DNA of 64,000 nucleotides. Source: Minisyncoccota bacterium. Its GTDB lineage: Bacteria; Patescibacteriota; Minisyncoccia; Phycocordibacterales; UBA9973. Below the pieces are notes generated by a model. The model saw nothing but the letters and a program-made list of their open reading frames with translations, ran no database searches and was not told the origin of the DNA. Positions 1,957 through 58,119 of this stretch are shown here, one piece after another (within the stretch, counting starts at the first letter, position 1; every line of letters starts with the position of its first letter). Where the stretch lies: the NCBI GenBank assembly GCA_035714785.1, contig DASTLQ010000004.1:48248-112247 (forward strand), written 5' to 3'. Position numbers and translations under genes: made by a program.

Positions 1957-2502
1957 ATGACATTCCAAGCAATAAACAACTTAAATATGTTTCTTGGAGC
2001 AGGAGCTATCGCGCTGCAGTTCTTTTCCGTGCTTACGCTTTTCATGCTCTTTTTTGGACCAAGAAAAAATGCTTTTCTTGATTACGTAGACAAGCACTTT
2101 TTGATTTTAGGATTTCTTATTTCGCTTTTCGCATCGCTTTTTTCGATGGTATATACCGAAGTAGTAGGATTCCTAGCATGTGCATTGTGCTGGTATCAGA
2201 GAATCTTTCTTTTCCCGCAAGTATTTCTTTTTGGAGTAGCTCTATGGGAAAAGGATAAGAAAGTGATCAAATATGCGTTACCGCTTCTCCTAGTGGGATT
2301 CGTCATTTCCATCTATCAGACATTCGTATATTACTTTGGAGATGTAAATGCACCCTGCGATGCTTCTGGTATTTCTTGCTATCAACAGCTAGTCTCAGTC
2401 TTCGGCGGATACATCTCGATACCAATGCTTTCGATGACTTCTTTCTTCTCTATGATAGTGCTCCTATCGGTTGTGCATTTTTACGGAAAGAGAAATCTCT
2501 AA
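1957..2502 (+). CDS. disulfide bond formation protein B (DsbB/BdbC family)
   Basis: Four TM helices. CALCWYQR lies in the first periplasmic loop and a second Cys pair (C..C) in the second loop, as in BdbC. Confidence 0.6.
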   Translation: MTFQAINNLNMFLGAGAIALQFFSVLTLFMLFFGPRKNAFLDYVDKHFLILGFLISLFASLFSMVYTEVVGFLACALCWYQRIFLFPQVFLFGVALWEKDKKVIKYALPLLLVGFVISIYQTFVYYFGDVNAPCDASGISCYQQLVSVFGGYISIPMLSMTSFFSMIVLLSVVHFYGKRNL

Positions 2503-2603
2503 AAGGGTCCACCTTCGCCAAAGGCGAAGGCGGACCCTTTACACACCCACCACCCTTACCTGTGGATAACATGCAAGGGGACCCCTTACACTTTATCCAC
2601 AAA
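2501..2603. repeat. composite palindromic repeat copy R1 (hairpin module + DnaA-box module + GGGGACCCC palindrome)
   Basis: Reads GGGTCCACCTTCGCCaaaGGCGAAGGCGGACCC...CCTGTGGATAACATGCAAGGGGACCCCTTAC...TTATCCACA. Confidence 0.85.
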
Positions 2604-2614
2604 TATTAAGAAAT

Positions 2615-2875
2615 ATGGAAAACGAAAAAATAACAAAAGAAGAAAAAAAGGAAAAAGAGACTTTACGAAAAGCCCTGCAGAATCAATCAAAAGGGTACAT
2701 CTTAGCGGGACTTGGATTAGTGTCGGGTCTTGCATGGAATGATGCGATACGGACGCTGATCGAAACGGTCTTTCCATTTTCTAAAGATGAAGTCTGGGTA
2801 AAATTTATATATGCGATAGTTATCACCTTGGTGGTCGTACTCATCGGCCGATATGTTTTTAAGGCGCAAAAATAG
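2615..2875 (+). CDS. hypothetical small membrane protein (Lys/Glu-rich N-terminus, two TM helices)
   Basis: 86-aa ORF bracketed on both sides by repeat copies R1 and R2. Confidence 0.4.
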   Translation: MENEKITKEEKKEKETLRKALQNQSKGYILAGLGLVSGLAWNDAIRTLIETVFPFSKDEVWVKFIYAIVITLVVVLIGRYVFKAQK

Positions 2876-2947
2876 GTGTAAGGGGACCCCTTACCTGTGG
2901 ATAACATGTAAGGGGTCCCCTTACATGTTATCCACAGGGTCCACGTG
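2876..2947. repeat. composite palindromic repeat copy R2
   Basis: Reads GTGTAAGGGGACCCCTTAC CTGTGGATAACATG TAAGGGGTCCCCTTAC ATGTTATCCACAGG GTCCAC. The central ~45 bp is a near-perfect palindrome. Confidence 0.85.
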
Positions 2948-2960
2948 CTAGAATACTGAT

Positions 2961-4514
2961 ATGGAAATTAAAAATAAAGAGGCGCAAATTGCCGTGGTGG
3001 ATTTGGGTTCGCAATACACAGAAATAATCAGGCGAAGTTTGCGCTATCTCGGTTTTTCTTCGGTAATTCTTTCTCCCAATGAAACTTTAGAATGGGTAAG
3101 GCAAAACCATCCAAAGGGCATAATATTGTCCGGTGGAAGTGCCAGCGTATACGACGCTGATGCTCCAAAAATTCCCGAAGAGATTTTAGAACTAAAAATT
3201 CCTATATTTGGAATATGTTTTGGCATGCAGTGGCTCGCGTATATTTCCGACAGAAATGCTGTGCATCAAGTGAAAGAAGGAAAGTCGTATGGACCAGTAG
3301 AAGTAGAAGTGGGCGAAAACACCAAGAGCCATCTTTTTCAAAATGTTGGCAAAAAAATCAAAGCTTGGTCTAGTCATGGAGATTCTGTAAAAATTGCGCC
3401 AGCTGGTTTTCAAATAGTTGCTACGTCAAAAGATGGTTCAGTCATTGAAGCAATGGAAGATTCTTCTAGAAAGTTTTACGGAGTGCAATTTCATCCAGAA
3501 GTAGAACAAACAGAAGATGACAATCAGATTCTATTAAACTTTGTTGAAAAAATTTGCGGATGTGAAAAAGATTATTCTAAAAGTGATGTTATTAAAGAAA
3601 TTCGAGAGAACACTGAAAAGGAATTGGGGCCGGATGGTATAGCCATCATCGGTGTTTCTGGTGGAGTAGACTCTACTACTCTCGCAGCGATCCTCTCTCC
3701 GGTGCTGGGGAATCGTTTAAAAGCTTTCATGATCGATACAGGAGGTATGCGTGAAGGTGAAGTGGAGGCAGTTTTAAAAATAGCTCAAAAGGCGAAGATA
3801 CCTTTGGAAATAATAACAAAATACAAGGAGCGATTTATCGAAGAGATTGGAAAAACGATTGACGCAGAAGAAAAGCGGGCAAAATTTCGCCAAGTATATG
3901 GTGAAGTATTTCGTGAAGTAGCCAAGTCTTACGATGCTACTCATATGATTCAAGGTACTTTAGCCACGGACTTGATTGAGTCAGGAAGCAAGGGAGGCTC
4001 TGCCATGATTAAAACGCATCACAATGTTGATCTTGATTTAGGGTTAAAGGAAATAATGCCTCTCTCTGATTATTTTAAATTTGAAATCAGGGAGCTTGCT
4101 TCAGAGTTTGGATTAGAAGAGCTAGTTGCAAAACGCCAACCATTTCCAGGCCCCGGACTTTTTTTAAGAATTGTTGGAGTTCCTATTACATCTGAGTTGC
4201 TCGAGATTGTCAGAGATGCAGATACCTCCGTAAAAAATATTCTTCAAAAACATGGTGTATATGAAATGATTTCTCAGACAATCGTTTCATTGCTCGGGGT
4301 AAAGACTGTCGGCGTAAAAGGGGATGGAAGAGTATATGGATACGCAATGGCTGTCCGTACTGTAGAAACAGTTGATTTCATGACTGCAAAAGGATTTTAT
4401 TTAAATAAAGAAATATGCGAGGAGATTGTCGCTTCTCTGACTAGTCACAGAGAAATAGTGCGAGTGTTCTTTGACTTTACTCCAAAGCCTCCAGCTACAA
4501 TGGAATATGAATAA
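2961..4514 (+). CDS. guaA: GMP synthase (glutamine-hydrolysing)
   Basis: Class-I GATase with GICFGMQ and HPE. ATP-pyrophosphatase P-loop SGGVDS. Typical GuaA C-terminal dimerisation domain. Confidence 0.95.
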   Translation: MEIKNKEAQIAVVDLGSQYTEIIRRSLRYLGFSSVILSPNETLEWVRQNHPKGIILSGGSASVYDADAPKIPEEILELKIPIFGICFGMQWLAYISDRNAVHQVKEGKSYGPVEVEVGENTKSHLFQNVGKKIKAWSSHGDSVKIAPAGFQIVATSKDGSVIEAMEDSSRKFYGVQFHPEVEQTEDDNQILLNFVEKICGCEKDYSKSDVIKEIRENTEKELGPDGIAIIGVSGGVDSTTLAAILSPVLGNRLKAFMIDTGGMREGEVEAVLKIAQKAKIPLEIITKYKERFIEEIGKTIDAEEKRAKFRQVYGEVFREVAKSYDATHMIQGTLATDLIESGSKGGSAMIKTHHNVDLDLGLKEIMPLSDYFKFEIRELASEFGLEELVAKRQPFPGPGLFLRIVGVPITSELLEIVRDADTSVKNILQKHGVYEMISQTIVSLLGVKTVGVKGDGRVYGYAMAVRTVETVDFMTAKGFYLNKEICEEIVASLTSHREIVRVFFDFTPKPPATMEYE

Positions 4515-5130
4515 TCAACCACAGTTTACACAAAAAGAAAAAAAATTGATAAAGAGTCTGAACACTCCAGCGAAGATTCAGGATTTTTTAAATAAACTTC
4601 CTTTTAATTTTGAAAAGGACGGACACGATACTATTAAATCTCCACTCCGTACTCTTCGCGAAAAGAATGCGCATTGTTTTGAAGGGGCACTTCTCGGTGC
4701 TTATATTTTATCGCAACACGGACACACTCCGCTTTTGCTTCATTTGAAAACGACTAGTGATGATATGGACCATGTGATAGCTCCTTTTAAAATAAATGGA
4801 TTGTGGGGCGCACTGTCGAAAACTAATCATGCTGTTTTGCGATATAGAGATCCGGTGTACAAAAATATTCGCGAATTAGTGATGTCGTATTTTCATGAAT
4901 ATTTTTTATATAACGGGAAGAAGACCCTCAGGCAGTATTCGAAGCCTCTTGATATGCGTGTGTTTAAAAAAGGATGGGAGGTTTCTGTTGAAGATTTGTG
5001 GATCGTAGATGAAGCCTTGGATAGGGCAAAGAATTTCGATATTGCGCCAAAAAATATTATTGCAAAGCTTCGCAAGGCCGACATTCTGGAAAGAAAAGTA
5101 GGGCAAGTAGAAGAATATCCAAAGGGGTAA
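4507..5130 (+). CDS. hypothetical protein (conserved Cys/His, possibly transglutaminase-like)
   Basis: ATG at 4507 overlaps the guaA stop. Soluble protein with HCFEGALLGAYIL...H motifs. No confident family assignment. Confidence 0.4.
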   Translation: MNNQPQFTQKEKKLIKSLNTPAKIQDFLNKLPFNFEKDGHDTIKSPLRTLREKNAHCFEGALLGAYILSQHGHTPLLLHLKTTSDDMDHVIAPFKINGLWGALSKTNHAVLRYRDPVYKNIRELVMSYFHEYFLYNGKKTLRQYSKPLDMRVFKKGWEVSVEDLWIVDEALDRAKNFDIAPKNIIAKLRKADILERKVGQVEEYPKG

Positions 5131-5182
5131 GGGGGGTAAGGGGACCCTTAACATGCAAGGGGACCCCTTACATGTTACATCT
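5123..5182. repeat. composite palindromic repeat copy R3 (degenerate)
   Basis: Reads GGGGTAAGGGGGGTAAGGGGACCCTTAACATGCAAGGGGACCCCTTACATGTTACATC, lying between convergent genes. Confidence 0.8.
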
Positions 5183-7181
5183 AGAGGCCGAAGATTTTGC
5201 GGACTAAGGACACTAGCCAGTTTCTTTTCTGAGGAGCCTCTCGTTCTGCGGACTTTTCTGATTCGCCGCCACGCGCCAATCCTGCGTCATTCCCTAGCTT
5301 CTGGCCGTCCGTCAGTCCCGCGCCACCTCCTAACTTCTCGCCGCCCGCCCGCCTCATCTCTTCGAGCTGTCTTCTAATTTCTTGGCTGATTTCGTCCCTG
5401 CTTGCCAGTGAACGCTGACTTGCTTGAAATGCTCCAATATTATTCTCAACCCCCGCGCGATTTGCTGGCACCGACAAGATTGCACCCACACCCTCCTTCT
5501 TTTCAAATTTTTTCATAAGCTCATTCCAGTTTTTTCCTGATAGGGAAGAAAGGACATAGCTCGTCTCCCAAAGTTTGTTTTTTTCATTTTCATTTTTTAT
5601 CCCACCAGTTGTATCTTCCACATTTTTCAAAAAGCCGTAAGCGGTGTTTTTGGTTGTTCCATGTTTCCAATTTTCAATTTTCTCTCCCATGGCTAGAATG
5701 CCCTGCATAGCCCATGCGGTAGAAGAAACATTTCCAAAACCTCCATTTTCTTTCTGCGATCTTTTCAAAAAATCTTTTGCTTTTGCTATAGAATTTTTTG
5801 CAGAAGAGTTTAGTGGAAAGTTGGAAAGGGCGACGATGCTTGCGCCAGTCATGTCGGGGCTATCATTCCACGAACCGTTTGCCATTTGTTTGGAAATAAT
5901 AAATGACATAGCATTTTGAATCATCTTCTCCTCTGTCGAATATCCCGCGTTCAGTAGCACGATGATGGCAAATACGTCGTCATTGTACAGTGCGGTATCT
6001 CCAAACTGATTGCCTTTATACGAGTCCACAATTTTTTGAATATAGTTTTCACCGTTTGTTCCGTACGGATTTAGTCCTAGGGCCATCAAGGCCATCGCTC
6101 GACGTTCGATGTCTGTCAGAGTATTACCCGTCGGTTTATTTGTAGCCAAATATTGAAAGAGTTTTGCTTTTTCAAGAGGGAAGTCGGAGTTTCCGAAAAA
6201 AGCGATTGCAGTCCATTCAGTGAAAAGATCTGCGCCAAAAGATCCACCTTCTTCTTGCTGAGAAACTAGATATTTGAAAGCATTATTTATATTGAAGTTA
6301 GAATCATTTTCTTCCTTGGTTGTGGTAACTGGTTTCGCTGGGGTCACAGAACTTCCGCCACCACTACTTCCGCTAGAGCCTCCACCACCACTTCCACTGG
6401 AACCGCCACCACTGGAACCGCCACCCCCACCACCTCCGCCGCTGGATGGAGCTGCCGTCACCACTAATTCCTCTGTTGGAAAGTAGTAGTCTTCCTTTAC
6501 TCCAAAATTATATGTGCCCACCGCAAGAGAAGAAAAAATTGCTTTTCCTTCGTTATCTACCGGCATAGTCACTATCTCAAGTGGCGTCCATGGGTCACTC
6601 GGATTTGGCTGTGTCGCCCCGATAGTCACACCTCCTCGAGCGGTCCACGAATTGTTTTCATAGTCGTATAAAAAAGCTGTGACCGTGACAGTACCGTTTG
6701 TGTAGATGGAACTTGCGCTGAGAGTGATTTTACTTTGAGATCCAAAATATACGTATACTGTTTCGTTGCCAGAAAGAATTGTTTTGTCCATTCCTTCTTG
6801 AGGATAATTTCCATTTACCACAAATTGCCAGTCATCGCATTTGTTGCCCGTGGAGCCGTTGATGCATTTTAAATAGAGGGATTCGAAGGAAGAAAAATAC
6901 TGTAACTCCGAGATATTGAAATTTTCACTTAGAAGATCGGCTGTGTTCACAATAGATAGCACGCTTTTTGCGTCGATGGTCCTAGGCGTACCAGTACTAT
7001 CTGTAAGCTCCACCGTTTCTCCTTCAGGTAGAGCAACTGCACCTTCAAATAATTTCACATTTCCATCTTGGATGATCAGGTTTACGTCCGCCAGCGCAAT
7101 TTGGTTTCCAAAAACAAAAGCGATTAATAAAAAGAACCCGATGCCGAACACTGCACTCGATAATGATTTAATTTTTTGCAT
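5181..7181 (-). CDS. secreted or surface protein with a DUF4430-like beta domain, Ig-like domain, Gly/Ser linker and prenyltransferase/squalene-oxidase-like alpha/alpha-toroid repeats (transcobalamin-like architecture)
   Basis: Signal peptide present. The N-terminal domain ends in DDWQFVVNGNYPQEGMDKTILSGNETVYVYFG, the W.F.VNG...G...L..G..V..Y pattern. A GGGGGGGGSSGGGSSGSGGGG linker follows. The C-terminal repeats (ALYNDDVFAIIVLLNAG, MTGASIVALS, STAWAMQGILAMG) resemble alpha/alpha toroid proteins. A candidate cobalamin riboswitch lies directly upstream. Confidence 0.5.
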   Translation of the reverse strand: MQKIKSLSSAVFGIGFFLLIAFVFGNQIALADVNLIIQDGNVKLFEGAVALPEGETVELTDSTGTPRTIDAKSVLSIVNTADLLSENFNISELQYFSSFESLYLKCINGSTGNKCDDWQFVVNGNYPQEGMDKTILSGNETVYVYFGSQSKITLSASSIYTNGTVTVTAFLYDYENNSWTARGGVTIGATQPNPSDPWTPLEIVTMPVDNEGKAIFSSLAVGTYNFGVKEDYYFPTEELVVTAAPSSGGGGGGGGSSGGGSSGSGGGGSSGSSGGGSSVTPAKPVTTTKEENDSNFNINNAFKYLVSQQEEGGSFGADLFTEWTAIAFFGNSDFPLEKAKLFQYLATNKPTGNTLTDIERRAMALMALGLNPYGTNGENYIQKIVDSYKGNQFGDTALYNDDVFAIIVLLNAGYSTEEKMIQNAMSFIISKQMANGSWNDSPDMTGASIVALSNFPLNSSAKNSIAKAKDFLKRSQKENGGFGNVSSTAWAMQGILAMGEKIENWKHGTTKNTAYGFLKNVEDTTGGIKNENEKNKLWETSYVLSSLSGKNWNELMKKFEKKEGVGAILSVPANRAGVENNIGAFQASQRSLASRDEISQEIRRQLEEMRRAGGEKLGGGAGLTDGQKLGNDAGLARGGESEKSAEREAPQKRNWLVSLVRKIFGL

Positions 7182-13260: not shown

Positions 13261-13353
13261 TTGCAACATGCAAGGTTCCCCTCCAAGGGTCCACCTTCGC
13301 CAGAGGCGAAGGCGGACCCTTTAACACGCAAGGGGACCCCTTACACGTTGCAA
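13261..13353. repeat. composite palindromic repeat copy R4 (with terminal inverted repeats TTGCAACATG / CACGTTGCAA)
   Basis: Reads ...CAAGGGTCCACCTTCGCCAGAGGCGAAGGCGGACCCTTTAACACGCAAGGGGACCCCTTACACGTTGCAA, in the divergent region between secG and the metalloprotease gene. Confidence 0.85.
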
Positions 13354-13382
13354 TTTCCCTTAAAAAGGAGTATAATTAGACC

Positions 13383-15845: not shown

Positions 15846-16457
15846 ATGCAAAACAATAAAGGTTTTACAACGACAAGTATTGTGATGATCGTGTTACTCG
15901 GAATCGCTATCGCAGCGGGTTCATATTATTTGGGAGCAGAAAAGAGTGCGGTGCAAGAGTATCCGCCTAATGTTTATAACGATGTTTACCCTGAGCCCGT
16001 AGATGATGTTAAGTCAGTCGATAACCCTGTGACACCTACGTCAAACGTCGGCGCAGGCAGTGAACAAGTAAATACAGAGAATTTTAACAATCAACCAGGT
16101 GCGGTAAAATCAATTCAAACCAACAGTAGTACAAGTTGGACCCTAGCAGTGGATCTCTTAACTCATAATCCAAATTGGTTGCCCGGAGTGGATAGTAGTG
16201 GTGGATTTTTTATTAATCAAAACACAATGATTAGAAATTTATCTGTAACAAATGCCACCAAAACATATATTTGTGGAGCAGGCCCAGACGGAAATAGTAC
16301 CACTGCTGATGTTCTCGAAAATACTTCGAGTTTCCTATCAAGTATAAATGCTAATATAAAGAACAAAGATTATAATAGCCAGTTCGTTGGGCCTACAAGT
16401 TATTTTGATATTAAGGGAACAAGCATTATTGCGATTTATCAGCAGTGCTTACCGTAA
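15846..16457 (+). CDS. secreted/membrane-anchored hypothetical protein, paralog A (shared N-terminal module)
   Basis: The N-terminal 36 aa MQNNKGFTTTSIVMIVLLGIAIAAGSYYLGAEKSAV are nearly identical to the next gene at both protein and DNA level. The C-terminus diverges. Confidence 0.45.
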   Translation: MQNNKGFTTTSIVMIVLLGIAIAAGSYYLGAEKSAVQEYPPNVYNDVYPEPVDDVKSVDNPVTPTSNVGAGSEQVNTENFNNQPGAVKSIQTNSSTSWTLAVDLLTHNPNWLPGVDSSGGFFINQNTMIRNLSVTNATKTYICGAGPDGNSTTADVLENTSSFLSSINANIKNKDYNSQFVGPTSYFDIKGTSIIAIYQQCLP

Positions 16458-16475
16458 CTTTCTTAGATTAAAAAA

Positions 16476-17081
16476 ATGCAAAACAACAAAGGTTTTACCA
16501 CAACAAGTATCGTGATAGTCGTGTTACTCGGAATCGCTATCGCAGCGGGTTCATATTATTTGGGAGCAGAAAAGAGTGCGGTGCCAAAATATTCTGAATC
16601 TCCATTTGATAAACTTTCTCAAAATGGACAAAATCAGACGGTGGAGACAAGCAACCAACAGCAAGCTCAGCTTTATAGAAACCCTGACCTTGGTTTTTCA
16701 TTTAATCCATTAGCTTTTGAAGGTGTAAAAACGTGGAACAACTATCCTTTAATTGGGGAAGGTGAGAAAGGGCTAAGCATGAGAGGATATCTTTCATTTC
16801 AAGATCCAGTTTTCTATTTTGCTGGTATGACACCTGATTATTCTGCGGGAAGAGGTACAGACTGCGGGGAAGCAAAAAGCTATCCGACAGAAGCTGAAAT
16901 GACAAATGCGAAAGGTGTTCGCTATATATATAAATATAATACGACAGATGAAATGCAGGGACCTCAGCACGTAGCTTATTTCAAATTAAAAAAAGGTCCC
17001 TTTCCAGTGCTAGGGTTTTGTGGGATTGGTATAAGCGAAAATGATTTTATTAGCGTGATAAATACAGTTACATTAGATTAA
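16476..17081 (+). CDS. secreted/membrane-anchored hypothetical protein, paralog B (shared N-terminal module)
   Basis: Same 5' module as 15846..16457 (about 95 percent nucleotide identity over the first ~110 nt), followed by an unrelated C-terminus. Confidence 0.45.
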   Translation: MQNNKGFTTTSIVIVVLLGIAIAAGSYYLGAEKSAVPKYSESPFDKLSQNGQNQTVETSNQQQAQLYRNPDLGFSFNPLAFEGVKTWNNYPLIGEGEKGLSMRGYLSFQDPVFYFAGMTPDYSAGRGTDCGEAKSYPTEAEMTNAKGVRYIYKYNTTDEMQGPQHVAYFKLKKGPFPVLGFCGIGISENDFISVINTVTLD

Positions 17082-18774: not shown

Positions 18775-21309
18775 ATGAAAAAAATAATACTTGGTTTGTT
18801 TGTGTTTGGTTTGATGTTCTCTTTTGGTTTGAATAACGCGCAAGCGGTCACTTCCACTTCGCTTGATACTCTTTTGAGTAAAAATTATACAGTGGGTTCA
18901 AGAGGTGAAGATGTAAAAACAATTCAGAGCATTCTTATAGAAAAAGGTTTGCTTGCTCCTGGAAATGTCACGGGATATTATGGACCTCTTACTGCTCGCG
19001 CAGTAGCCTCATATAGAAGTCAGAGCGCTTCTACTATGCCAGTAAACGACATAGCTCCTATTCTTCCGACCGCAGCAATAAACCCGTTATCCAAAAGCTG
19101 TCACATTTCCAGTTTTACCGTGAATGGACTTACTTCTGCTACTATTGCAAACAACGTAGGAGCCTCACTTGCTTGGACAACTACAAACTGCTCTTCTCTA
19201 AGTATTTCAAATGTTTCAACTCCAACAAGATTACCACTTTCCGGAAAACTTGAATTGCTTCATCCTCAGACGGGACTTTATACACTAACCGCCAAGGGAT
19301 TAAATAATTCCACAGTTTCTAAGTCAGTATCAGTAATCCTTTCTACTCTTCCAGCAGGATGTACTTCTTCTGTGGGGTACAGTCCTCTCACTGGACTGCC
19401 ATGCTTTGTCGGACCCGTATTGCCAGCAGGATGTACTTCTACTATGGGATATAGTCCTTTGACAGGCTTGCCTTGTAATGGAGGAGTAGTAACCGGAGGA
19501 GGTCCCGTTATTAGTAGTGTCTCCGGTCCTCAATCATTGAATGTCGGTCAGCAAGGAACATGGACAGTCATAGCTTCTGATTCAAGCGGAGGAAATCTCA
19601 GCTACAGCGTAGTATGGGGTGATGAAACTTATAAACCAGCTCCACCACAACCAATGAGTCAGACAGCTACATTTACACATGTATATAGTACAGCTGGAGA
19701 ATATGTCCCTACCTTTACAGTCACCAATCAAAATGGTCAGAGTGCCGAGACGAGCTTGAGTGTGAGAGTAGGTGGAACAATTTCCAATCTTCCATCAGCA
19801 GTTATTAATGCTAACCCTTCTGTTATTCCTAAAGGGAATTCTAGTGTAATTTCTTGGACGTCTAGAAATGCGTCTACTTGCGTAGCAAATGGAGGAATAA
19901 GCGGTTGGCAGGGAACGAAGCCAACTACGGGAATATTTTTAGCTAACCAAATCAATCAGACTACAACATTTCACATTACATGTTCTAACACCAGCGGTCA
20001 GAAGGCATCAGCGTCAGTCAGAGTCATCGTAATTAATCCACCCGTCACCGTCCTTTCTCCAAAAGGAGGGGAAGCGTGGATGAAGGGAACCGCACAGACA
20101 ATAAAATGGCAGGATGATTACAATTACACTACCGACGCGATTAGGTATTATTCAATCAAACTTGTACCAGATTATTATAGCGGATGTGGCGGAAGTTCTC
20201 CGATGGTAGCCTGTCAGGCTGTGAGTTCTTTAATTGAACCATATGTTATATCCGATAACGTGGCATTAAGTTCCAATTCTTTTTCATGGATCGTAGGAAG
20301 AGTATCGAACGATCGTGTCGTGCCTGAAGGTTCATATATGGTTGAAATTTGTGAAAAGTCCACAAATAAATGTGGTTCAAGTAATTCTCATTTCAGGATT
20401 ATCGCCTCTAACGCGTTACCTCCAAATGTAACTATCGTTGCTGGACAGACTACAGTACCCTACAATGGTTCCACAACTATTCGATGGAATTCACAGAATG
20501 CTACAAGCTGTACTATGAATGGTGGTGTCACAGGTTGGACATCTCCAAAGCCAACTTCCGGGGTATTCAACACTGGCCCAATGAGAGCTTCAACTACTTT
20601 CCATATTTCTTGTACTGGAAATGGAATGACTGCTACTGGATCAGTGAGAGTAAATGTAACTAACCCTACTGGAGTTGGCCCTGTCATTAGTGGTGTTTCT
20701 GGTCCTCAATCATTGAATGTCGGTCAGCAAGGAACATGGACAGTCATAGCTTCTGATTCAAGCGGAGGAAATCTCAGCTACAGCGTAGTATGGGGTGATG
20801 AAACTTATAAACCAGCTCCATCACAAACAATGAGTCAGACTGCGACTTTCACTCATGTGTATAGTGTGGCCGGAAACTACAATCCTACCTTCACTGTTAC
20901 CAATCAAAATGGTCAGAGTGCACAGAGTAGCTTGAGCGTGAGGGTATTGGCTCCAGTCCCATCTTCTACTTCAACAATTAATGTTTCAGCAAATGCACTG
21001 AGCGCTTTTAACAACATGGCAACTACTTCTACCATTACTGGTACAGTAGAACCAAATGTCACTTCAACTCAATCTTCTGCAGTATGTAATTTTACTCAAA
21101 CTCTTAGACAGGGGATGAATAATAGCGAAGTAAAGTGTCTTCAACAAATGTTGGGACGAAAAGGCTTCAAAGTGCAAGATGCAGGTTCTGAAACCACATA
21201 TTTCGGAGAAGCCACTCTGTCTGCCCTAAAGGCTTTTCAAACTCAAAAAGGCCTTGTGGCTGATGGAATCTTTGGCGCAAAGAGCCGAGCGGTGTTGATT
21301 GGAAATTAA
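18775..21309 (+). CDS. large secreted cell-wall-associated protein with two PG_binding_1 domains and internally duplicated PKD/Ig-like repeats
   Basis: Signal peptide. N-terminal (GEDVKTIQSILIEKGLLAPGNVTGYYGPLT) and C-terminal (SEVKCLQQMLGRKGFKVQD...GIFGAKS) peptidoglycan-binding modules. Two copies of a ~85-aa unit (SGPQSLNVGQQGTWTVIASDSSGGNLSYSVVWGDETYKPAP) are identical over ~130 nt. Confidence 0.55.
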   Translation: MKKIILGLFVFGLMFSFGLNNAQAVTSTSLDTLLSKNYTVGSRGEDVKTIQSILIEKGLLAPGNVTGYYGPLTARAVASYRSQSASTMPVNDIAPILPTAAINPLSKSCHISSFTVNGLTSATIANNVGASLAWTTTNCSSLSISNVSTPTRLPLSGKLELLHPQTGLYTLTAKGLNNSTVSKSVSVILSTLPAGCTSSVGYSPLTGLPCFVGPVLPAGCTSTMGYSPLTGLPCNGGVVTGGGPVISSVSGPQSLNVGQQGTWTVIASDSSGGNLSYSVVWGDETYKPAPPQPMSQTATFTHVYSTAGEYVPTFTVTNQNGQSAETSLSVRVGGTISNLPSAVINANPSVIPKGNSSVISWTSRNASTCVANGGISGWQGTKPTTGIFLANQINQTTTFHITCSNTSGQKASASVRVIVINPPVTVLSPKGGEAWMKGTAQTIKWQDDYNYTTDAIRYYSIKLVPDYYSGCGGSSPMVACQAVSSLIEPYVISDNVALSSNSFSWIVGRVSNDRVVPEGSYMVEICEKSTNKCGSSNSHFRIIASNALPPNVTIVAGQTTVPYNGSTTIRWNSQNATSCTMNGGVTGWTSPKPTSGVFNTGPMRASTTFHISCTGNGMTATGSVRVNVTNPTGVGPVISGVSGPQSLNVGQQGTWTVIASDSSGGNLSYSVVWGDETYKPAPSQTMSQTATFTHVYSVAGNYNPTFTVTNQNGQSAQSSLSVRVLAPVPSSTSTINVSANALSAFNNMATTSTITGTVEPNVTSTQSSAVCNFTQTLRQGMNNSEVKCLQQMLGRKGFKVQDAGSETTYFGEATLSALKAFQTQKGLVADGIFGAKSRAVLIGN

Positions 21310-21350: not shown

Positions 21351-22395
21351 ATACACAAGAACGTCATCCATACGGATAGGCGTTTTTGTTTGAACTTTGA
21401 CAATATGATTGAATAAAATTGAGAACGCCGACATTTCAAGTCGGCAAGCAAGTCTCAAGAAGTTTTGTAAATAAATAATCAGAGCTAGGAACAAGAAATT
21501 AAAACACAAAAACAATACTGTTTTTTGTTTTGTTTCGTTCCACTGTCAATTTTTTAAAATGACAGCCTAACTTTTAGTTAGAGTTTGATCCTAGCTCAGG
21601 ATGAACGCTGGCGGCGTGGCTAAGGCATGCAAGTCGAACGAATCAGTCCCATGAATGGATGAAAGAAGTTTTGAGTAGCAATACAAGAGACAGATGGATT
21701 TCTGGATTGGGTTTGCTGGTTAGTGGCGAACGAGGTAGTAATACATAGGAACTTCCCCCAGAGTCGTGAATAATCCGGAGAAATCCGGACTAATACACGA
21801 TGGTCTCTTCCGCCAATTGGCGGAAGAGTAAAGTTTTAACGCTCTGGGAAAGGCCTGTGCGATATCAGCTAGTTGGTAGGGTAATGGCCTACCAAGGCTA
21901 TGACGTCTAGGGGAGCTGAGAGGCTGACCCCCACCGATGGAACTGAGACACGGTCCATACACCTACGGGTGGCTGCAGTCAAGAACCTTCCACAATGGAC
22001 GAAAGTCTGATGGAGCGACGCCGCGTGATTGATGAAGTCCCTTTGGGACGTAAAGATCTTTTATGAGGGAAGAAGTTTATTGACGGTACCTCATGAATAA
22101 GAGGCTCCTAATCTCGTGCCAGCAGGAGCGGTAATACGAGAGCCTCGAGCGTTATCCGGAATTATTGGGCGTAAAGGGTGCGTAGGTTGTTCTGTTAGTC
22201 TTTCGTTAAATCCTTGGGCTTAACCCAAGAACCGCGGAAGAAACGGCAGGACTTGAAAGTGCGAGAGGCGTACGGAACTCATGGTGTAGGGGTGAAATCC
22301 GTTGATATCATGGGGAACACCGAAGGCGAAAGCAGTACGCTGGCGCATATTTGACACTGAAGCACGAAAGCGTGGGTAGCGAATGGGATTAGATA

Positions 22396-42730: not shown

Positions 42731-43120
42731 ATGTATAAAAAAATAATTTTTCTCGCAGTTGTTCTTCTTCTGGTCATCGCTCCGGTAGATATTTTCCCTG
42801 CAGTAGCAGAAGGATTGGTAAAGTGTGGCACAGATAAGCCATGCGGATTTGAAGATCTTTTGATTTTAATAAATACGGTAGTGAACTTCGTGATGATTCA
42901 GTTAATGATTCCTTTGGCTGCGCTTTTGTTTGCTTATGCGGGAGGAATGCTGATGTTCTCAGGAGGAGAAGTATCAAAGAGACAACAAGCCAAGAAAATA
43001 TTTACCAATGTCGCCCTAGGTCTCATCATAGCGGCCGCATCATGGCTCATCGTCAATACAGTCCTTACCATTATGGGGTATAACGGTGCTTGGATAGGAT
43101 TTAAAGATGTTGTACAATAA
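42731..43120 (+). CDS. pilin-like two-TM small protein (CPR T4SS-pilin / VirB2-TrbC-like family), paralog 1
   Basis: Signal/TM segment, then a hydrophobic helix, a short charged loop (GGEVSKRQQAKK) and a second hydrophobic helix. Confidence 0.45.
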   Translation: MYKKIIFLAVVLLLVIAPVDIFPAVAEGLVKCGTDKPCGFEDLLILINTVVNFVMIQLMIPLAALLFAYAGGMLMFSGGEVSKRQQAKKIFTNVALGLIIAAASWLIVNTVLTIMGYNGAWIGFKDVVQ

Positions 43121-43502
43121 ATTTATGAAAATTATAAAAAATCCACTTGTTATCATCACTATCATAATGCTGGTGTCCTTTTTTCCTTTGGTTACATTTG
43201 GTCAGGCTACTGGTAGCGCACCACCTGCACCCCCCGTGGAAAACCCAATTAAAAATCCCATCGGTGTCAGCTCGTTTACTGGACTCCTAAAACAAATCCT
43301 GGAAGGGGCGATCAAAATTGGTATGCCAGTCATAGCGCTTGCGATTATTTATTCAGGTTTTCTTTTTGTTGCAGCTCAAGGTAATCCAGAAAAACTCGAT
43401 ACGGCCAAGAAATCTTTCGTATATACTTTGATCGGAGCAGCTATACTACTCGGAGCTTGGGCACTGGCTCAAGTGATCACAACGACCGTGCTTTCTTTAT
43501 AA
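43107..43502 (+). CDS. pilin-like two-TM small protein, paralog 2
   Basis: Same topology. The loop reads AAQGNPEKLDTAKKS. Confidence 0.45.
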   Translation: MLYNKFMKIIKNPLVIITIIMLVSFFPLVTFGQATGSAPPAPPVENPIKNPIGVSSFTGLLKQILEGAIKIGMPVIALAIIYSGFLFVAAQGNPEKLDTAKKSFVYTLIGAAILLGAWALAQVITTTVLSL

Positions 43503-43520
43503 ACTAATATAATTATTTAA

Positions 43521-44435
43521 ATGGAAATCAAAGATATAATAATCAAGCTCGGAAATTTACTGGATACATTGTTACCCGTATTAGTTTTAGCTGGTGTGGT
43601 GATTTTCGTTTGGGGAGTGATTCAATACGTGATAGGAGGGGACGAAGAAGCCAAATCAAAAGGAAAGAATCGCATCATCTGGGGTATCGTCGGGTTTGCG
43701 ATCATTGCAGGATTATATGGTTTAATCAATATAGTATTAAATACTTTTGGGTTGGATCCATCGAGCGGAAATTTGGTTTCGCCTACGGGCCTAGTTCCTG
43801 CTACACCTACGCCAGGTACTTGTGAGGGTACTGGTAACATCGGTTCACTCATCTGTAAAATTGGAACAATTCTCAATTCTATCATTCCTCTCCTCATCAG
43901 CTTCGGGGTAGTAATCTTTGTATGGGGAGTAGTGCAGTACGTGATAGGAGGGGACGAAGAAGCCAAATCAAAAGGAAAAGACAGAATGATTTGGGGAATC
44001 ATCGGACTAGTGGTGATCGCCTCAATGTGGGGATTGGTCAATATGGTAGTGAAAACTTTTGACTTAAATCCGACGGGGTCTAGTGGAGTGGCTAATCAAT
44101 TTTTACAAAATACTAGCCAACTCGGTAATACTCCCGGTACTTGTTCTATCGCTGCAACGGGAGCAAGTCTCGGGGACCTTATGAATTATGCGACCTGTCT
44201 GATTACTAAGTCGGTAATTCCTCTAATCTTTTCATTGGCAGTTCTCTTGTTCGTCTGGGGAGTAGTACAGTATGTGATATCTGGAGCAAATGAAGAACAA
44301 AAAGACAAAGGGAAGAATTTCATGATATGGGGAATCATTGCGCTTACTGTGATGGTGTCTGTCTGGGGGATTGTGCGCATTGTAGGTGATACTTTTGGGA
44401 TAGAATATGCGATTCCGCAGGTGAAGAGCAGGTAG
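43521..44435 (+). CDS. triple-module pilin-like protein (three tandem two-TM pilin-like units fused in one ORF)
   Basis: Three repeats of VIFVWGV(I/V)QYVIGGDEEAKSKGK(N/D)R(I/M)IWGI(V/I)G...NTFGL. The first two share an identical 40-nt stretch TACGTGATAGGAGGGGACGAAGAAGCCAAATCAAAAGGAAA. Confidence 0.5.
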   Translation: MEIKDIIIKLGNLLDTLLPVLVLAGVVIFVWGVIQYVIGGDEEAKSKGKNRIIWGIVGFAIIAGLYGLINIVLNTFGLDPSSGNLVSPTGLVPATPTPGTCEGTGNIGSLICKIGTILNSIIPLLISFGVVIFVWGVVQYVIGGDEEAKSKGKDRMIWGIIGLVVIASMWGLVNMVVKTFDLNPTGSSGVANQFLQNTSQLGNTPGTCSIAATGASLGDLMNYATCLITKSVIPLIFSLAVLLFVWGVVQYVISGANEEQKDKGKNFMIWGIIALTVMVSVWGIVRIVGDTFGIEYAIPQVKSR

Positions 44436-44567
44436 GCGGTATCCACAGTTTCCTCTTTTGTCTTTATTTTGTATGGTATAATTAAAAAAGAACCTAAACA
44501 TTAGGAAAAAATTATAAGGTCGTTTCCGCGAGAGCGGTGTTATCAATAATCCCGTTAGGGAAAAAAA

Positions 44568-44954
44568 ATGAAAAATAAATTAATCGTATTTATGGTTTCC
44601 GCAGCCTCATTGGCTTCTATGCCTTTGTTTGCTTTGGCGCAGGGTAGAGGAGGTGCTTGTAGTGTAGTAAACACACAAAATACCATTCAGGGTATCATTT
44701 GTAAGGCAGGAGAAATATTGGGAGTAGTGCTTCCATTCTTGGTTGCATTGGCAGTTGTTATCTTTGTGTGGGGAGTAGTGATGTATGTTGTTTCAAGTGA
44801 CGAGGAAGCAAAGAGCGCTGGAAGAAACAGAATGATCTGGGGAATTGTCGGTCTTGCAGTGATCGTATCATTGTGGGGATTGGTAAGAATCTTGACCAAT
44901 ACTTTTGACCTTAACACAAATCAGGGTGTTACTTTGCCAGTACTTCCTTACTAA
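44568..44954 (+). CDS. pilin-like two-TM small protein, paralog 4
   Basis: VIFVWGVVMYVVSSDEEAKSAGRNRMIWGIVGLAVIVSLWGLVRILTNTFDL is the same module. Confidence 0.5.
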   Translation: MKNKLIVFMVSAASLASMPLFALAQGRGGACSVVNTQNTIQGIICKAGEILGVVLPFLVALAVVIFVWGVVMYVVSSDEEAKSAGRNRMIWGIVGLAVIVSLWGLVRILTNTFDLNTNQGVTLPVLPY

Positions 44955-44957
44955 TAA

Positions 44958-45296
44958 ATGATGACCTGGCTCTTCGGAAATATAGCCTACGCGAGCGTGG
45001 ATGCCTTTATGGCAAACGTGGGACGGCTCATCATCAATCCACTCATTACTCTTCTTTTTGCCTTGGCGGCTGCATACTTTCTTTACGGGGTTTTCCAGTT
45101 TATTGCAAATGCCCAAAATGATGAGAAGAGAACTCAAGGCAAAAGTCATATGCTTTGGGGAGTGATCGGAATAGTGATAATGTTGGGAGTATGGACAATA
45201 CTAAATATTGTTTTAAAAACTTTCAATATTGATGGAATAAATCCTGAGCAGGGAACAGTACAATTAAACGAGTACAACCCAAGCTTTCCGAAGTAG
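44958..45296 (+). CDS. pilin-like two-TM small protein, paralog 5
   Basis: AAAYFLYGVFQFIANAQNDEKRTQGKSHMLWGVIGIVIMLGVWTILNIVLKTFNI. Confidence 0.45.
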   Translation: MMTWLFGNIAYASVDAFMANVGRLIINPLITLLFALAAAYFLYGVFQFIANAQNDEKRTQGKSHMLWGVIGIVIMLGVWTILNIVLKTFNIDGINPEQGTVQLNEYNPSFPK

Positions 45297-55992: not shown

Positions 55993-56784
55993 ATGCCCAG
56001 ACGTTGGACAACCACAGAAGAAAATAAATATCGCTTGGAATTATTTTCGCTTTATATAGAGCAAAACAAAAGCCTGCGTGAAGTTGCTTTAGCTCTTAAT
56101 ATTACGGAAGCCAGTGTGTTCTCAAGATTAAAAAGATTGGGAATAAAAACTTGCCCGACTCTCAAGGATAACTATCTTCGAAAAAGAAAAGATTTAACGA
56201 TTCCCACAGAGTACTCAGCAGACTTGGCGGAATTCTTTGGTGTCATGCTTGGGGATGGACACCTCAGTCATTTTCAGGCTACGGTTACGTTAGGTAATAA
56301 GGAAAAAAACTACGCTGAGCATGTAAGTGTACTTTTTCAAAAAGTTTTTGGCGTAGCAGGTACGATTTGCGTACGGAAGAGCTTGTATAGAGATGTGTAT
56401 CTTGGCTCGGTAGAGGTTACATCGTGGTTGTTTAAAGAAGGTCTTGTTTCTAATAAGGTGAAATCACAAGTGAATGCACCTTCTTGGATATTTCGAGAAA
56501 GTATTCTCATGGAAAATTTTTTACGAGGATTTTTTGATACTGACGGATCAGTTTATAAATTAAAATTTGGCATTCAGATTTCGTTCTGCAACAGATCGTT
56601 ACCGTTGCTGGAATCTTTACATTTAATGCTAAAAAAGTTAAAATACCATCCGTCAAATATCAGTGGTTTTAATTTTTATCTTACTAGACGAAAAGAAGTC
56701 AAAAGATTCTTTGAAGAGGTAAGGCCTGCTAATTCAAAGCACGTTAGGAGATATTTTGAAATAATGAATGCGTCGGTCGGATAG
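55993..56784 (+). CDS. free-standing double-motif LAGLIDADG homing endonuclease with N-terminal HTH region
   Basis: Motifs FFGVMLGDGHL and LRGFFDTDGSVY. The 3' end overlaps the first ~15 nt of tRNA-Tyr. Confidence 0.7.
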   Translation: MPRRWTTTEENKYRLELFSLYIEQNKSLREVALALNITEASVFSRLKRLGIKTCPTLKDNYLRKRKDLTIPTEYSADLAEFFGVMLGDGHLSHFQATVTLGNKEKNYAEHVSVLFQKVFGVAGTICVRKSLYRDVYLGSVEVTSWLFKEGLVSNKVKSQVNAPSWIFRESILMENFLRGFFDTDGSVYKLKFGIQISFCNRSLPLLESLHLMLKKLKYHPSNISGFNFYLTRRKEVKRFFEEVRPANSKHVRRYFEIMNASVG

Positions 56785-56853
56785 TGGCTATTCCAGGAGA
56801 CTGTAAATCTCCCGCCTTAATTGGCATCGGTGGTTCGAGTCCACCCCGGCGCA
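56770..56853 (+). tRNA. tRNA-Tyr (anticodon GTA), type II
   Basis: GCGTCGGTCGGATAGTGGCTATTCCAGGAGACTGTAAATCTCCCGCCTTAATTGGCATCGGTGGTTCGAGTCCACCCCGGCGCA. Anticodon loop CTGTAAA, long variable arm. Confidence 0.85.
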
Positions 56854-56899
56854 CAACATGTAAGGGGACATGTAAGGGGACCCCTTACACCTTACACCC
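56854..56899. repeat. repeat copy R9 (palindrome module only)
   Basis: Reads CAACATGTAAGGGGACATGTAAGGGGACCCCTTACACCTTACACCC, directly after tRNA-Tyr. Confidence 0.8.
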
Positions 56900-56905
56900 A
56901 AAAAT

Positions 56906-57334
56906 ATGGACACAAATCCTGACAATAAAAAAAAGTTTTTAAAAAACAGTAAAAGGATTTTTATCTGTAACATCGTTGTTGTTCTAGGTTATATTGGCTT
57001 CTTTTTATTGGTAGGAGAAAATTTTGGTCTCATATTTGCATATTTGCCGTTGATAATAGCTTTGATGTTTCTTTCCTTGATTACAATAATATCCGATATA
57101 TATTTAGCGGTGCATTATTTTAAATACAAAGATTACAAAATGTTCTCCCTTGCTTTGCTTCTGTTAGTGATAGTGTCTTTTCCGTTTTATCTTCCATTAA
57201 TAAATTTATCTTCGAACAGTTCAAAATTGGAAAGGATGAATCAGCAACTTCTTTTCAACGAACAACAAGAAATGGCTGAGAAAGCCATATTAAAGGAACG
57301 AGATGAATTAATGAAAGAGCCAACGGGCATTTAA
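56906..57334 (+). CDS. hypothetical polytopic membrane protein (AT-rich)
   Basis: Three or four hydrophobic helices and a C-terminal charged tail. Confidence 0.3.
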   Translation: MDTNPDNKKKFLKNSKRIFICNIVVVLGYIGFFLLVGENFGLIFAYLPLIIALMFLSLITIISDIYLAVHYFKYKDYKMFSLALLLLVIVSFPFYLPLINLSSNSSKLERMNQQLLFNEQQEMAEKAILKERDELMKEPTGI

Positions 57335-57374
57335 CCTGTGGATAACATGTAAGGGGACCCCTTGCCCTTACACC
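57335..57374. repeat. repeat copy R10
   Basis: Reads CCTGTGGATAACATGTAAGGGGACCCCTTGCCCTTACACC, directly after the stop at 57334. Confidence 0.85.
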
Positions 57375-57443
57375 TTTGACTTTTATTGATAACATTGTAA
57401 TGTTTATATAGAAAAATTAAAACAATTATTTTAGAGGTGTAAA

Positions 57444-58001
57444 TTGAAAAAACAAATCAGTTTCTCTACGTTTTTAGCAACTTGGTTTATGTCTGGGTTG
57501 CTAAAACCCATTCCGCCATTTAAGGCGATGGCAGGGACATACGGTAGCTTTCTGGCGCTTCCTTTGTGTTATTTAGGGTTAATATATTCTGAAAATTTAT
57601 TTTTTAACACCACGCCAACTGATGCAGGAAAATTTGTTTTATACATGGCTCTGGTGGTAATGGTGTATTTTTTTGGCATGCTAACTGTACCTATTGCTGA
57701 AGATGAATTAGGGGAGCAAATAGACTGGAAGGGTAAAATCAAAACAAGGGATCAGAACCAGATTGTAATTGACGAGGTTTTGGGAATGCTAATTTCTTGC
57801 ATTCCGATACTTTTCGTACCGCGAAAGTTAGAGTATTTTCTGTTTGCTTTCGTGCTGTTTAGAATCTTTGATATTGTTAAGATCCCGCCAACCAGGTACT
57901 TTGATAAAATCAAAAGTGCCTTTGGGGTGATGATGGACGACGTGATCGCGGGAATATATGCCGCAGCGTCGTTATGGTTTTTGATTAAGTATTTATTGTA
58001 G
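57444..58001 (+). CDS. pgpA: phosphatidylglycerophosphatase A-like (PgpA family)
   Basis: AGTYGSFLALPL and IDEVLGMLIS resemble the PgpA motifs (GTFGSL, DEVVGM). Confidence 0.5.
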   Translation: MKKQISFSTFLATWFMSGLLKPIPPFKAMAGTYGSFLALPLCYLGLIYSENLFFNTTPTDAGKFVLYMALVVMVYFFGMLTVPIAEDELGEQIDWKGKIKTRDQNQIVIDEVLGMLISCIPILFVPRKLEYFLFAFVLFRIFDIVKIPPTRYFDKIKSAFGVMMDDVIAGIYAAASLWFLIKYLL

Positions 58002-58043
58002 CCGTTTTCAACACAAGAAGTCGTTGGAGACGGCTTTTTGTTT

Positions 58044-58119
58044 AGGGCGAAGGTGGACCCTTACTACACAAAAAAATGATTTAACCTGTGGATAACATGT
58101 AAGGGGACCCCTTACACCC
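58044..58119. repeat. repeat copy R11 (half hairpin module + DnaA-box module + palindrome)
   Basis: Reads AGGGCGAAGGTGGACCCTTAC...CCTGTGGATAACATGTAAGGGGACCCCTTACACCC. Confidence 0.85.

Follow-up and report, generated by a model that had tools for sequence, protein, structure and literature searches.

Dispersed REP-like palindromic repeats carrying DnaA boxes in a Candidatus Paceibacterota genome, and related hairpins in other bacteria of the candidate phyla radiation

INTRODUCTION

Repetitive extragenic palindromic (REP) elements are thought to be mobilised by REP-associated tyrosine transposases (RAYTs). Rickettsia palindromic elements (RPEs) are palindromic repeats found in frame in protein-coding genes of a reduced genome and translated with them, RPE-1 being some 100-150 nt long; to our knowledge, no transposase is known for them. 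Here, a dispersed, hairpin-forming, REP-like repeat family is described in a stretch of 64,000 nt (the window, to which all positions refer) from contig DASTLQ010000004.1 of assembly GCA_035714785.1, i.e., a metagenome-assembled genome (MAG) of Candidatus Paceibacterota within the candidate phyla radiation (CPR). The MurE protein encoded in the window is 100% identical to HEU0085416.1, which is annotated as Candidatus Paceibacterota and encoded on a contig of 115 kb.

The closest described systems are the REP elements, along with the bacterial interspersed mosaic elements and the REP doublets forming hairpins (REPINs), with which the present family shares GC-rich palindromic units of 20-40 nt in high copy, inverted dimers folding into one long hairpin, a location mostly downstream of genes with supply of stop codons, and some intragenic copies (PMC3733652). 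For tagged REPs, stop-codon supply, inverted dimers and a location in repair and translation genes are documented in a survey from which CPR bacteria are absent (PMC3733652). Unlike them, the family lacks the unpaired GTAG or CGTC tag, its core is itself a near-perfect palindrome, its arms carry DnaA boxes, most copies detected in other CPR genomes are intragenic, and no RAYT was found in the window or, by a crude motif screen, among 449 open reading frames (ORFs). As neither an enzyme gene nor the tag was found, the family is not filed in those REP superfamilies.

Other systems offer narrower parallels. The GC clusters of fungal and algal organelles are tiny GC-rich palindromes of AT-rich compact genomes, which nest, stutter and insert in coding regions; they are, however, organellar and unrelated in sequence, and in some yeasts the inserts are bypassed in translation, whereas the frames stay open here. 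Reservoirs of DnaA boxes (datA and DARS in Escherichia coli, the clusters of Bacillus subtilis) also place consensus boxes outside the origin, but as fixed loci with demonstrated regulation, whereas the present boxes, putative DnaA-binding sites, are carried by a repeat and have no counterpart in a syntenic relative. Bacterial MITEs (miniature transposable elements with inverted repeats), such as the Correia elements of Neisseria, which carry sites for the integration host factor, are likewise small and non-autonomous, may alter the expression of neighbours and may carry protein-binding sites, but possess parent-matching terminal inverted repeats and target duplications, neither of which is seen here. 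As for the RPEs, the likeness is the in-frame insertion in genes, absent from orthologues (in murE and in the genes for LepA, RecJ and SufS here); the present hairpins, of 27-47 nt against about 100-150 nt and in a CPR host, are set apart by size and host, and probably share no sequence with the RPEs. RPEs occur in rickettsiae and other proteobacteria (PMC3733652).

In the literature searched, no paper on the repeat biology of CPR bacteria, the genomes of which are tiny and densely packed, was found, and neither was the core sequence. Palindromic repeat DNA is a kind of element already known; what stands out is a core shared among CPR bacteria and often lying inside genes, to which arms with DnaA boxes of the oriC type are added in this genome. 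The reading that we favour, holding it with about as much confidence as reserve, is that of a tiny, non-autonomous, selfish palindromic DNA of the REP/REPIN kind with RPE-like intragenic copies.

A SHARPLY DEFINED REPEAT FAMILY

An earlier, sequence-only reading of the window had placed eleven copies (R1-R11) in it, and every position it named holds one. Its estimate of about 12 perfect DnaA-box 9-mers against roughly 0.5 by chance is borne out: TGTGGATAA/TTATCCACA matches 12 times against 0.43 expected, a number reached in none of 100 shuffles, 11 of the matches lying inside repeats and the twelfth, at 26882, being a separate conserved site. The core AAGGGGWCCCCTT has 16 exact matches at 11 loci in 64 kb against 0.06 expected, and allowing three mismatches in the 15-mer adds one partial copy within R3 and one chance hit. 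There is no substitution in the 16 cores nor in the ten A arms; the copies differ by the presence, absence or duplication of modules, i.e., they vary by structure rather than by substitution.

Three shuffled modules, A, B and C, had been proposed. All three exist, with A, B and A' forming one perfect palindrome of 45 nt, CCTGTGGATAACATG-YAAGGGGWCCCCTTR-CATGTTATCCACAGG, found complete at 2894-2938 (R2) and 35172-35216 (R7). The core within it is AAGGGG-W-CCCCTT, 13 bases usually extended to GYAAGGGGWCCCCTTRC, where GTAA pairs with TTAC. R2 and R7 are mirror-image dimers of order B-A-B'-A', for which two mutually exclusive hairpins can be drawn, one pairing A with A' and the other pairing B with B' and looping out the DnaA box. 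R6, R10 and R11 are half units and the other copies are patchworks with short stuttered duplications, namely ACATGTAAGGGG twice in R9, pieces of CCCCTTAC in R5 and R10, and GGGGTAA in R3. Module C is a longer hairpin, the outer stem of which (AAGGG...CCCTT) resembles the core; it occurs at 2503-2541 and 13285-13323 in versions 97% identical, and incomplete arms are seen at 58044-58064 as well as in a twelfth copy beyond the window. The strong hairpins claimed for several copies hold for the large ones, whose folds far surpass those of shuffled controls (z -5.5 to -10.4), and not for the half copies, which fold weakly, or barely in the case of the murE copy (z -0.7). In R2, R5 and R7, inverted units are predicted to fold into one long hairpin.

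The family is no product of assembly. The same repeat loci are present in a Logan assembly made independently from run SRR10492801, contrary to the possibility of an adapter or chimeric junction. That assembly also shows the twelfth copy just outside the window, where it follows alaS and lies at the 3' end of Logan contig L002. Logan contigs end inside copies, at window positions 2571, 32193 and 58090 and in the twelfth copy, which fits a genomic repeat and not an adapter or chimera; such repeats break short-read assemblies of these genomes. In exact-protein look-ups, the organism was matched only in run SRR10492801. No Rfam family was found at any copy at gathering thresholds, and a search for peptides encoded by the repeats gave no match, the same search having also missed the genome's own MurE. 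That the repeats are an artefact, or else a DNA uptake signal, can be given next to no credence. Against the former stand the independent assembly, the preserved reading frames and the origin of the data in many projects. Uptake signals also occur as inverted pairs and in genes in all frames, at about 1 per kb, and the window holds five genes resembling type IV secretion system (T4SS) pilins, but 11 clustered loci in 64 kb fall far below such a density.

GAIN OF COPIES IN THIS LINEAGE

The clearest insertion is R6 in murE, where 27 nt in frame (32167-32193, TGTAAGGGGTCCCCTTGCATGTTATCC) are read as the nine residues CKGSPCMLS in the context ...EIK-CKGSPCMLS-TGAPRLISLAGCGGDRD, with Mur_ligase_C spanning the insertion. 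These residues are absent from 21 homologues and, at the codon level, from two relatives, L075 and L076. The latter is syntenic with the window (ddl, secA, murE, murD, murC, an ORF, S1 and gyrA), and no core was found in its 18.9 kb, including the sites orthologous to copies of the window: (i) the gap corresponding to R5 is 63 nt long and has no core, (ii) R7 is absent from the alignable intergenic region, the region downstream of murC aligning with the window on the downstream side of the R7 site, and (iii) downstream of the gene in the position corresponding to R8 lies a plain terminator, AAAACCCCTC...GAGGGGTTTT. A comparison between related genomes, proposed along with the original description, thus indicates that copies were gained in this lineage and recently inserted. 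As L076 does without any copy at orthologous sites, none is needed at a particular site. Both the intragenic copy and the wider CPR family had been missed by the sequence-only reading.

RELATED HAIRPINS IN OTHER CPR GENOMES

Scanning for pairs of cores separated by 6-38 nt returned 35 metagenome loci and 31 genome loci, from which, once duplicates and unrelated families were removed, 39 non-redundant hairpins remained. They lie on contigs of 35-54% GC, mostly 36-49%, in MAGs of Parcubacteria, Minisyncoccia, Gottesmanbacteria and the "Patescibacteria group", with several hairpins per genome, and in groundwater or sediment samples. Outside the present genome, the density is one pair per some 10-45 kb of the loci covered. 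The core hairpin recurs across the CPR with a perfect stem of 15-19 bp, a loop of 0-17 nt (median 4) and sharp limits, the palindrome reaching at most 1 nt past the core in 32 of the 39. The central pair is A-T in 23, T-A in 16 and mismatched in none. The central W was considered as an orientation marker and rejected: A..T and T..A pairs are unchanged by reverse complementation, so that they represent true base-pair swaps, not flips. Genome-specific subfamilies can be recognised, one of which has a conserved loop of 16-17 nt in two MAGs, with seven copies in one MAG. TTCAA/TTGAA adjoins one end in seven of the 39 hairpins and both ends in none; the flanks are T-rich on the 5' side and A-rich on the 3' side, without target duplication. 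Common descent of the window family and these hairpins may be inferred from the shared core.

Some of the records bearing hairpins in the Genome Taxonomy Database (GTDB) set are titled "uncultured Gammaproteobacteria/Pseudomonadales bacterium" (TPA_asm; L039-L046, L054-L056, L061, L062, L064, L065 and L067-L069). The LepA protein of one of them (CAZUOM01) has its best matches in Gottesmanbacteria and other Patescibacteria, whence these titles look wrong.

Two thirds of the hairpins (26/39) lie at least 140 nt inside long ORFs and survive there without a stop or frameshift, in genes for GT4, SufS, MiaA, RecJ, Wzy, UvrB, GT2, PMT_2 and LepA. The cores are translated in all three frames, i.e., as KGTPF/KGSPF, RGPL and QGDPL/QGVPL, meaning that the DNA is conserved and not the peptide. 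In RecJ, the hairpin adds about 10 residues; in LepA, about 8-11 residues relative to uninserted relatives; in SufS, it lies inside an extra loop of about 32 residues. Three miaA genes, two of which were compared and are about 50% identical, have a hairpin after RRLIRAIEV; its offset shifts a little from gene to gene, its frame also differs, and on the coding strand TTCAA comes before each copy. In LepA, the site follows VVDG: L040 and L062, the proteins of which are 70% identical, carry intact hairpins, L079 is empty, in L081 the hairpin is another one and has a stutter, and many other homologues vary in length there, some of their peptides looking like decayed copies. Judging from these several genomes, the LepA and MiaA sites appear to be tolerant positions occupied recurrently or over long periods. 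At the same LepA site, L080 (2500-2640) has a nested palindrome of about 100 nt, in frame, with an RNA fold of -46.7 kcal/mol, containing the hairpin GGGGACCCC...GGGGGTCCCC.

Streamlined CPR genomes would on this evidence still carry selfish DNA, an element of at most 45 nt filling gaps and supplying stop codons. The residues it adds to MurE, LepA, MiaA, RecJ and SufS make it a concrete source of lineage-specific protein insertions.

HOW THE REPEATS MAY SPREAD

Sharp hairpin ends, the absence of target duplication and a one-sided flank together suggest HUH-type movement via a single-stranded hairpin. New copies would arise through a single-stranded hairpin intermediate recognised in trans by an enzyme encoded elsewhere, most likely a RAYT/IS200-type HUH tyrosine transposase, which would leave no target duplication. 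In the present genome, cores have joined the 15-nt arm CCTGTGGATAACATG to yield the 45-nt palindrome or the B-A-B'-A' dimers, and template switching and slippage at the hairpin would have reshaped copies into stuttered partial duplications while keeping the arms complementary. Surviving copies are those in short intergenic gaps, often supplying a TAA stop, and those within genes in frame and in length-variable parts of proteins, where translation adds 9-13 residues. Each full unit contributes two inverted DnaA boxes of the high-affinity sequence type, the probable binding of DnaA to them being a side effect rather than the reason for the family to exist.

Several observations weigh against this reading. 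As regards the enzyme, Pfam searches over essentially all ORFs of the 64-kb window revealed no transposase, integrase, HUH protein or insertion sequence, so that the search for a cognate transposase such as IS200/IS605 TnpA came to nothing in the window, and a crude regular-expression screen for HUH and Y motifs was negative for all 449 ORFs around the elements. The GTAG or CGTC tag is absent from the window copies and from the 39 hairpins alike. As regards ancestry, the closest MurE relative is only 67% identical, which keeps the comparison far from strain level; no decayed core was found in the window by the scan with three mismatches; and common descent rests on a core of 13-17 nt that was also the search key. 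The core is moreover found in unrelated hairpins and iterons, in Desulfovibrio and in phage-like contigs of Sutterella, and in single terminators of Streptomyces, Desulfosarcina and a Clostridia MAG. As regards the hairpins themselves, one of them replaces native residues in UvrB and others are kept perfect by paired changes in LepA, both being considered below.

The sequences set aside as unrelated are L004, L016-L019, L048 and L070-L074; L006 and L023; and L025, L027, L028, L037, L047, L049, L051 and L063. Among carriers of AAGGGGWCCCCTT of this sort, phage-like contigs from Sutterella or the gut have 23-nt direct iterons, a 15-nt tandem array lies inside 181-nt repeats, and hairpins on high-GC contigs, four of them titled Desulfovibrio, share very similar flanks. 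In viral contigs, only the unrelated 23-nt phage iterons of the Sutterella kind were found and the extended palindrome had no match, and there is accordingly no sign of a phage vector.

In uvrB (L012, 2380-2450), a 36-nt hairpin encodes 12 residues that replace 12 native ones with a net change of one residue, which a simple insertion does not explain. It adjoins native GACCCCTTA, the conserved codons for Asp-Pro-Leu, which resemble half a core; there are hints here of a conversion guided by microhomology, and half-core microhomology at the target sites in murE, uvrB and lepA is so far anecdotal. These cases bear on spread without any dedicated enzyme, through template switching within copies and between them, quasi-palindrome correction and slippage seeded at half-core-like sites, an explanation that we consider unlikely, albeit one to be taken seriously. 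It would account for the stuttered partial duplications in R3, R5, R9, R10, the twelfth copy and L081, for the paired changes by which arms remain perfectly complementary, for the AAGGG-like bases at the murE site in relatives (CCC AAG GGT in L076) and for the lack of a transposase in the window and in the screen of 449 ORFs. What it leaves unexplained is that distant CPR lineages share one and the same core of 13-17 nt, sharply bounded on the outside, that identical composite units occupy a dozen unlinked sites in 67 kb, and that the TTCAA flank is one-sided.

The mobile hairpin may also be compared with a classical MITE. The sequence-only reading had seen imperfect terminal inverted repeats, and with them MITE-like mobility, around R4; the arms in question (TTGCAACATG...CACGTTGCAA) are variant A arms pairing as the outer stem of a single hairpin. 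No direct repeats flank any copy, so that target-site duplications are not found either, and of the REP/MITE-like label, the REP-like part can be kept and the MITE part dropped for want of an anatomy of terminal inverted repeats and duplications. A more elaborate version would have the 45-nt palindrome consist of two abutted terminal inverted repeats (TGTGG...CCACA) of a DDE insertion sequence elsewhere in the genome, the parent bearing CCTGTGGATAAC termini. Many DDE elements begin with TG and end with CA, as the arms do, R10 and R11 adjoin TTTAA and R6 adjoins TTAA, and the A+B composite was found in no other genome scanned, as for a young lineage-specific family. Nevertheless, this origin is very unlikely: besides the absence of target duplication, many copies lack one or both arms and still keep the core, the part conserved in other genomes is the core and not the arm, and no insertion sequence with matching termini was found in the window or in the loci examined. 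The ORF 35453-36136, between R7 and R8, was considered as a transposase and rejected, its only Pfam matches being below threshold and to cell-wall hydrolases (Glucosaminidase, SLT).

HAIRPIN CONSERVATION AND DNAA BOXES

Hairpins persist at the LepA site. L040 and L062 differ in their central pair, one having A-T and the other T-A, and in L078 (AAGGGGTGCCCTTGC...GCAAGGGCACCCCTT) a C-G pair has become G-C by a double change, so that the stem is still perfect although each core has lost its own symmetry. Such compensatory changes could reflect selection for structure, i.e., a function for the host. The core shared across distant CPR bacteria, along with these changes, provides a test bed for separating palindromes kept by selection from those kept by templated mutation.

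The perfect 9-mer attributed to module A is indeed there, in 11 boxes inside repeats, ten of which have the full 11-mer CTGTGGATAAC contained in the A arm. The 11-mer also occurs at one solo site outside the family (26881-26891, minus strand), in a conserved non-coding block upstream of secA. In E. coli, the interval between mnmG and mioC has exactly two occurrences of CTGTGGATAAC, in inverted orientation at a distance of 180 nt, a pair that we take to be the high-affinity boxes R1 and R4 of oriC. The solo-box block is 80% identical in L076, with box and flanks identical over about 27 nt, which shows the box to be in native use in this lineage. The block (window 26860-27000; L076 1790-1950) holds the solo box, as AAAAAAGTTATCCACAGTTTT, and promoter-like hexamers; it is 80% identical although the MurE proteins of the two genomes are only 65% identical, and in L076 it is followed by a tiny Lys/Ala-rich ORF.

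Among the 39 related hairpins, no DnaA box was found, and exact scans with the A+B composite TGTGGATAACATGYAAGGGGWCCCC gave no match in GTDB species representatives or in JGI metagenomes; the A arm and the composite thus appear specific to this genome, being so far unique to it. Both dnaA and oriC lie outside the window. Binding of DnaA to the repeats is likely in view of the box sequence, and titration of DnaA by them, as envisaged originally, is plausible. A repeat that spreads DnaA boxes suggests a route by which mobile DNA could alter the availability of DnaA.

These features could also be assembled into an element selected by the host, in which a conserved CPR protein would bind or process the core and the arms would be a dispersed set of DnaA boxes buffering free DnaA or regulating neighbours. 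In its favour are the perfection of every core with no decayed relic in the window, the compensatory evolution at the LepA site among three genomes with proteins about 70% identical, the sharing of the core by several CPR lineages, the spacing of core centres by some 20-23 bp in short-loop hairpins (derived from lengths), and the identity of the box with the 11-mer found twice between E. coli mnmG and mioC, its solo version being conserved in a relative. We nonetheless hold it to be clearly unlikely, because L076 lacks all copies at orthologous sites; copies lie in any context, including essential genes and all three frames; the LepA site has empty states, core-less hairpins and decayed-looking peptides in many genomes; density elsewhere is low; and the DnaA box is missing from the related hairpins. 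More doubtful still is the specific combination in which a core hairpin under structural selection throughout the CPR, recognised by a conserved CPR protein and tolerated even within essential genes, has here been fused with DnaA boxes of the high-affinity sequence type and sets the level of free DnaA; if true, replication in an organism with hardly any regulators would be controlled by a dispersed network able to evolve.

PLACEMENT OF COPIES AND THE QUESTION OF TERMINATORS

With the twelfth copy included, eight copies lie between genes of the same direction, after a stop codon or a transfer RNA (tRNA) gene (seven in the window plus the one after alaS), two between convergent genes, one between divergent genes (R4) and one inside murE (R6). 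Nine of the 12 are downstream of ORFs, in same-direction or convergent arrangement, the exceptions being R4, R6 and R9, which follows a tRNA. The earlier statement that copies sit almost exclusively after stop codons or between convergent genes is therefore roughly right (7 + 2 of 11), save for R4, at the start of secG, and R6. In three cases, the TAA of GTAAGG is itself the stop codon of the upstream gene, i.e., the ddl-like gene, the ORF 4471-5130 and alaS.

Such a distribution invites a reading of the repeats as intrinsic terminators or hairpins stabilising the 3' end of messenger RNA (mRNA), which had been suggested previously. The nine downstream copies and the very stable hairpins of the large copies speak for it, as does the finding that REPs can stabilise upstream mRNA in other bacteria (PMC3733652). 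The terminator described at R8 (A-tract, hairpin and T-tract) is present at 36160-36192, between convergent genes, but in no other copy does a T-tract follow a hairpin on the transcribed strand; R2 and R7 also gave terminator-like matches, though on the untranscribed strand. Separate canonical terminators exist, e.g., at 58162-58179, 43 nt after R11; R4 lies upstream of two divergent genes, in their promoter region, and R6 inside a gene; and the related hairpins are flanked by T-rich sequence 5' and A-rich sequence 3', opposite to what a terminator would show on either strand. The copies do not constitute the terminators of this genome, and termination or stabilisation as its main role is highly improbable, even if some copies may stabilise 3' ends.

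THE INDIVIDUAL COPIES

R1 (2501-2606) consists of a C hairpin (2502-2541), a spacer, an A arm (2559-2573), a B core (2575-2587) and a degenerate A' arm, and fills the gap from the end of a dsbB-like gene (2502) to the start of a DUF5654 gene (2615). Its DNA fold reaches -29.7 kcal/mol (z -10.4), and Logan contig L003 ends inside it, at 2571. R2 (2876-2945) has a B(A) core (2880-2892) ahead of the 45-nt palindrome (A, B(T), A'; 2894-2938), between the stop codon of the DUF5654 gene (2875) and guaA (2961), with a 21-bp stem (z -7.4). R3 (5123-5180) is made of stuttered GGGGTAA units, a B core (5157-5169) and a truncated A' arm (z -2.5), and occupies the whole gap between the convergent genes 4471-5130 (plus strand) and 5181-7181 (minus strand), the TAA within GGGGTAAGG being the stop codon of the former. 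In R4 (13261-13361), the variant outer arms surround a broken B, the C hairpin (13285-13323) and a B core (13330-13342), all folding as a single nested hairpin (-29.7 kcal/mol, z -7.7) between the divergent starts of secG (13269) and of an ORF at 13383.

R5 (25312-25420) holds three B cores (at 25330, 25367 and 25400), a single A' arm with its DnaA box at 25385, and the stuttered CCCCTTAC pieces (z -5.5), and the TAA within GGTGTAAGG ends the ddl-like gene (24413-25318). R6 (32166-32200, plus strand) lies inside murE (31306-32559) and is a half unit of B(T) and A'; Logan contig L001 ends in it, at 32193. R7 (35172-35237) joins the 45-nt palindrome to B(T) (35219-35231), thereby mirroring R2, after the murC stop codon (35145); its best fold pairs B with B', leaving the DnaA box in the loop (z -8.0). 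R8 (36160-36270) begins with the terminator hairpin, which has a B-like stem and is a canonical two-way terminator, and continues with B(A) (36199-36211), an A arm (36214-36228), B(A) (36230-36242) and a tail.

R9 (56855-56905) comprises the stuttered ACATGTAAGGGG unit, a B core (56874-56886) and a CCTTACA stutter (z -3.4); its first base directly follows tRNA-Tyr (56770-56854), and it extends as far as the next ORF start (56906). R10 (57335-57380), an A arm (57335-57349) with a B core (57351-57363) and a CCCTTAC stutter (z -3.2), adjoins a TAA stop codon at 57332-57334. R11 (58044-58119), between pgpA (end 58001) and typA (58226), has a partial C arm (58044-58064), an A-rich spacer, an A arm (58085-58099) and a B core (58101-58113); Logan contig L002 starts inside it, at 58090.

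OTHER FEATURES OF THE WINDOW

The window has a positive GC skew throughout, its genes are mostly on the plus strand, and Pfam searches over essentially all ORFs returned housekeeping genes only. The 16S ribosomal RNA gene (21573-24210) measures 2638 nt against a 1533-nt model and has an insertion of about 1.1 kb with an ORF for a LAGLIDADG_2 homing endonuclease (22605-23348). Its 3' end (24160-24215) reads ...GGAAGCTGGTCGTGGAATAATTC, without the usual CCTCC anti-Shine-Dalgarno tail, and the absence of this tail ruled out the core as a mimic of the Shine-Dalgarno/anti-Shine-Dalgarno pair (TAAGGGG/CCCCTTA). A free-standing LAGLIDADG_3 ORF (55993-56784), between clpB and tRNA-Tyr, overlaps the first 15 nt of the tRNA gene after which R9 starts.

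Repeats of other kinds are also present. The five T4SS_pilin (PF18895) genes are in tandem at 42731-45296 and have internal 95-nt repeats (families D3, D7 and D8). Two further stretches, 15846-17081 and 19351-20946, are of note: two adjacent paralogous ORFs of about 200 residues, with no Pfam match, are 93% identical over their first 122 nt, and, separately, a PKD/peptidoglycan-binding protein (18775-21309) contains an internal duplication of 279 nt, 87% identical.

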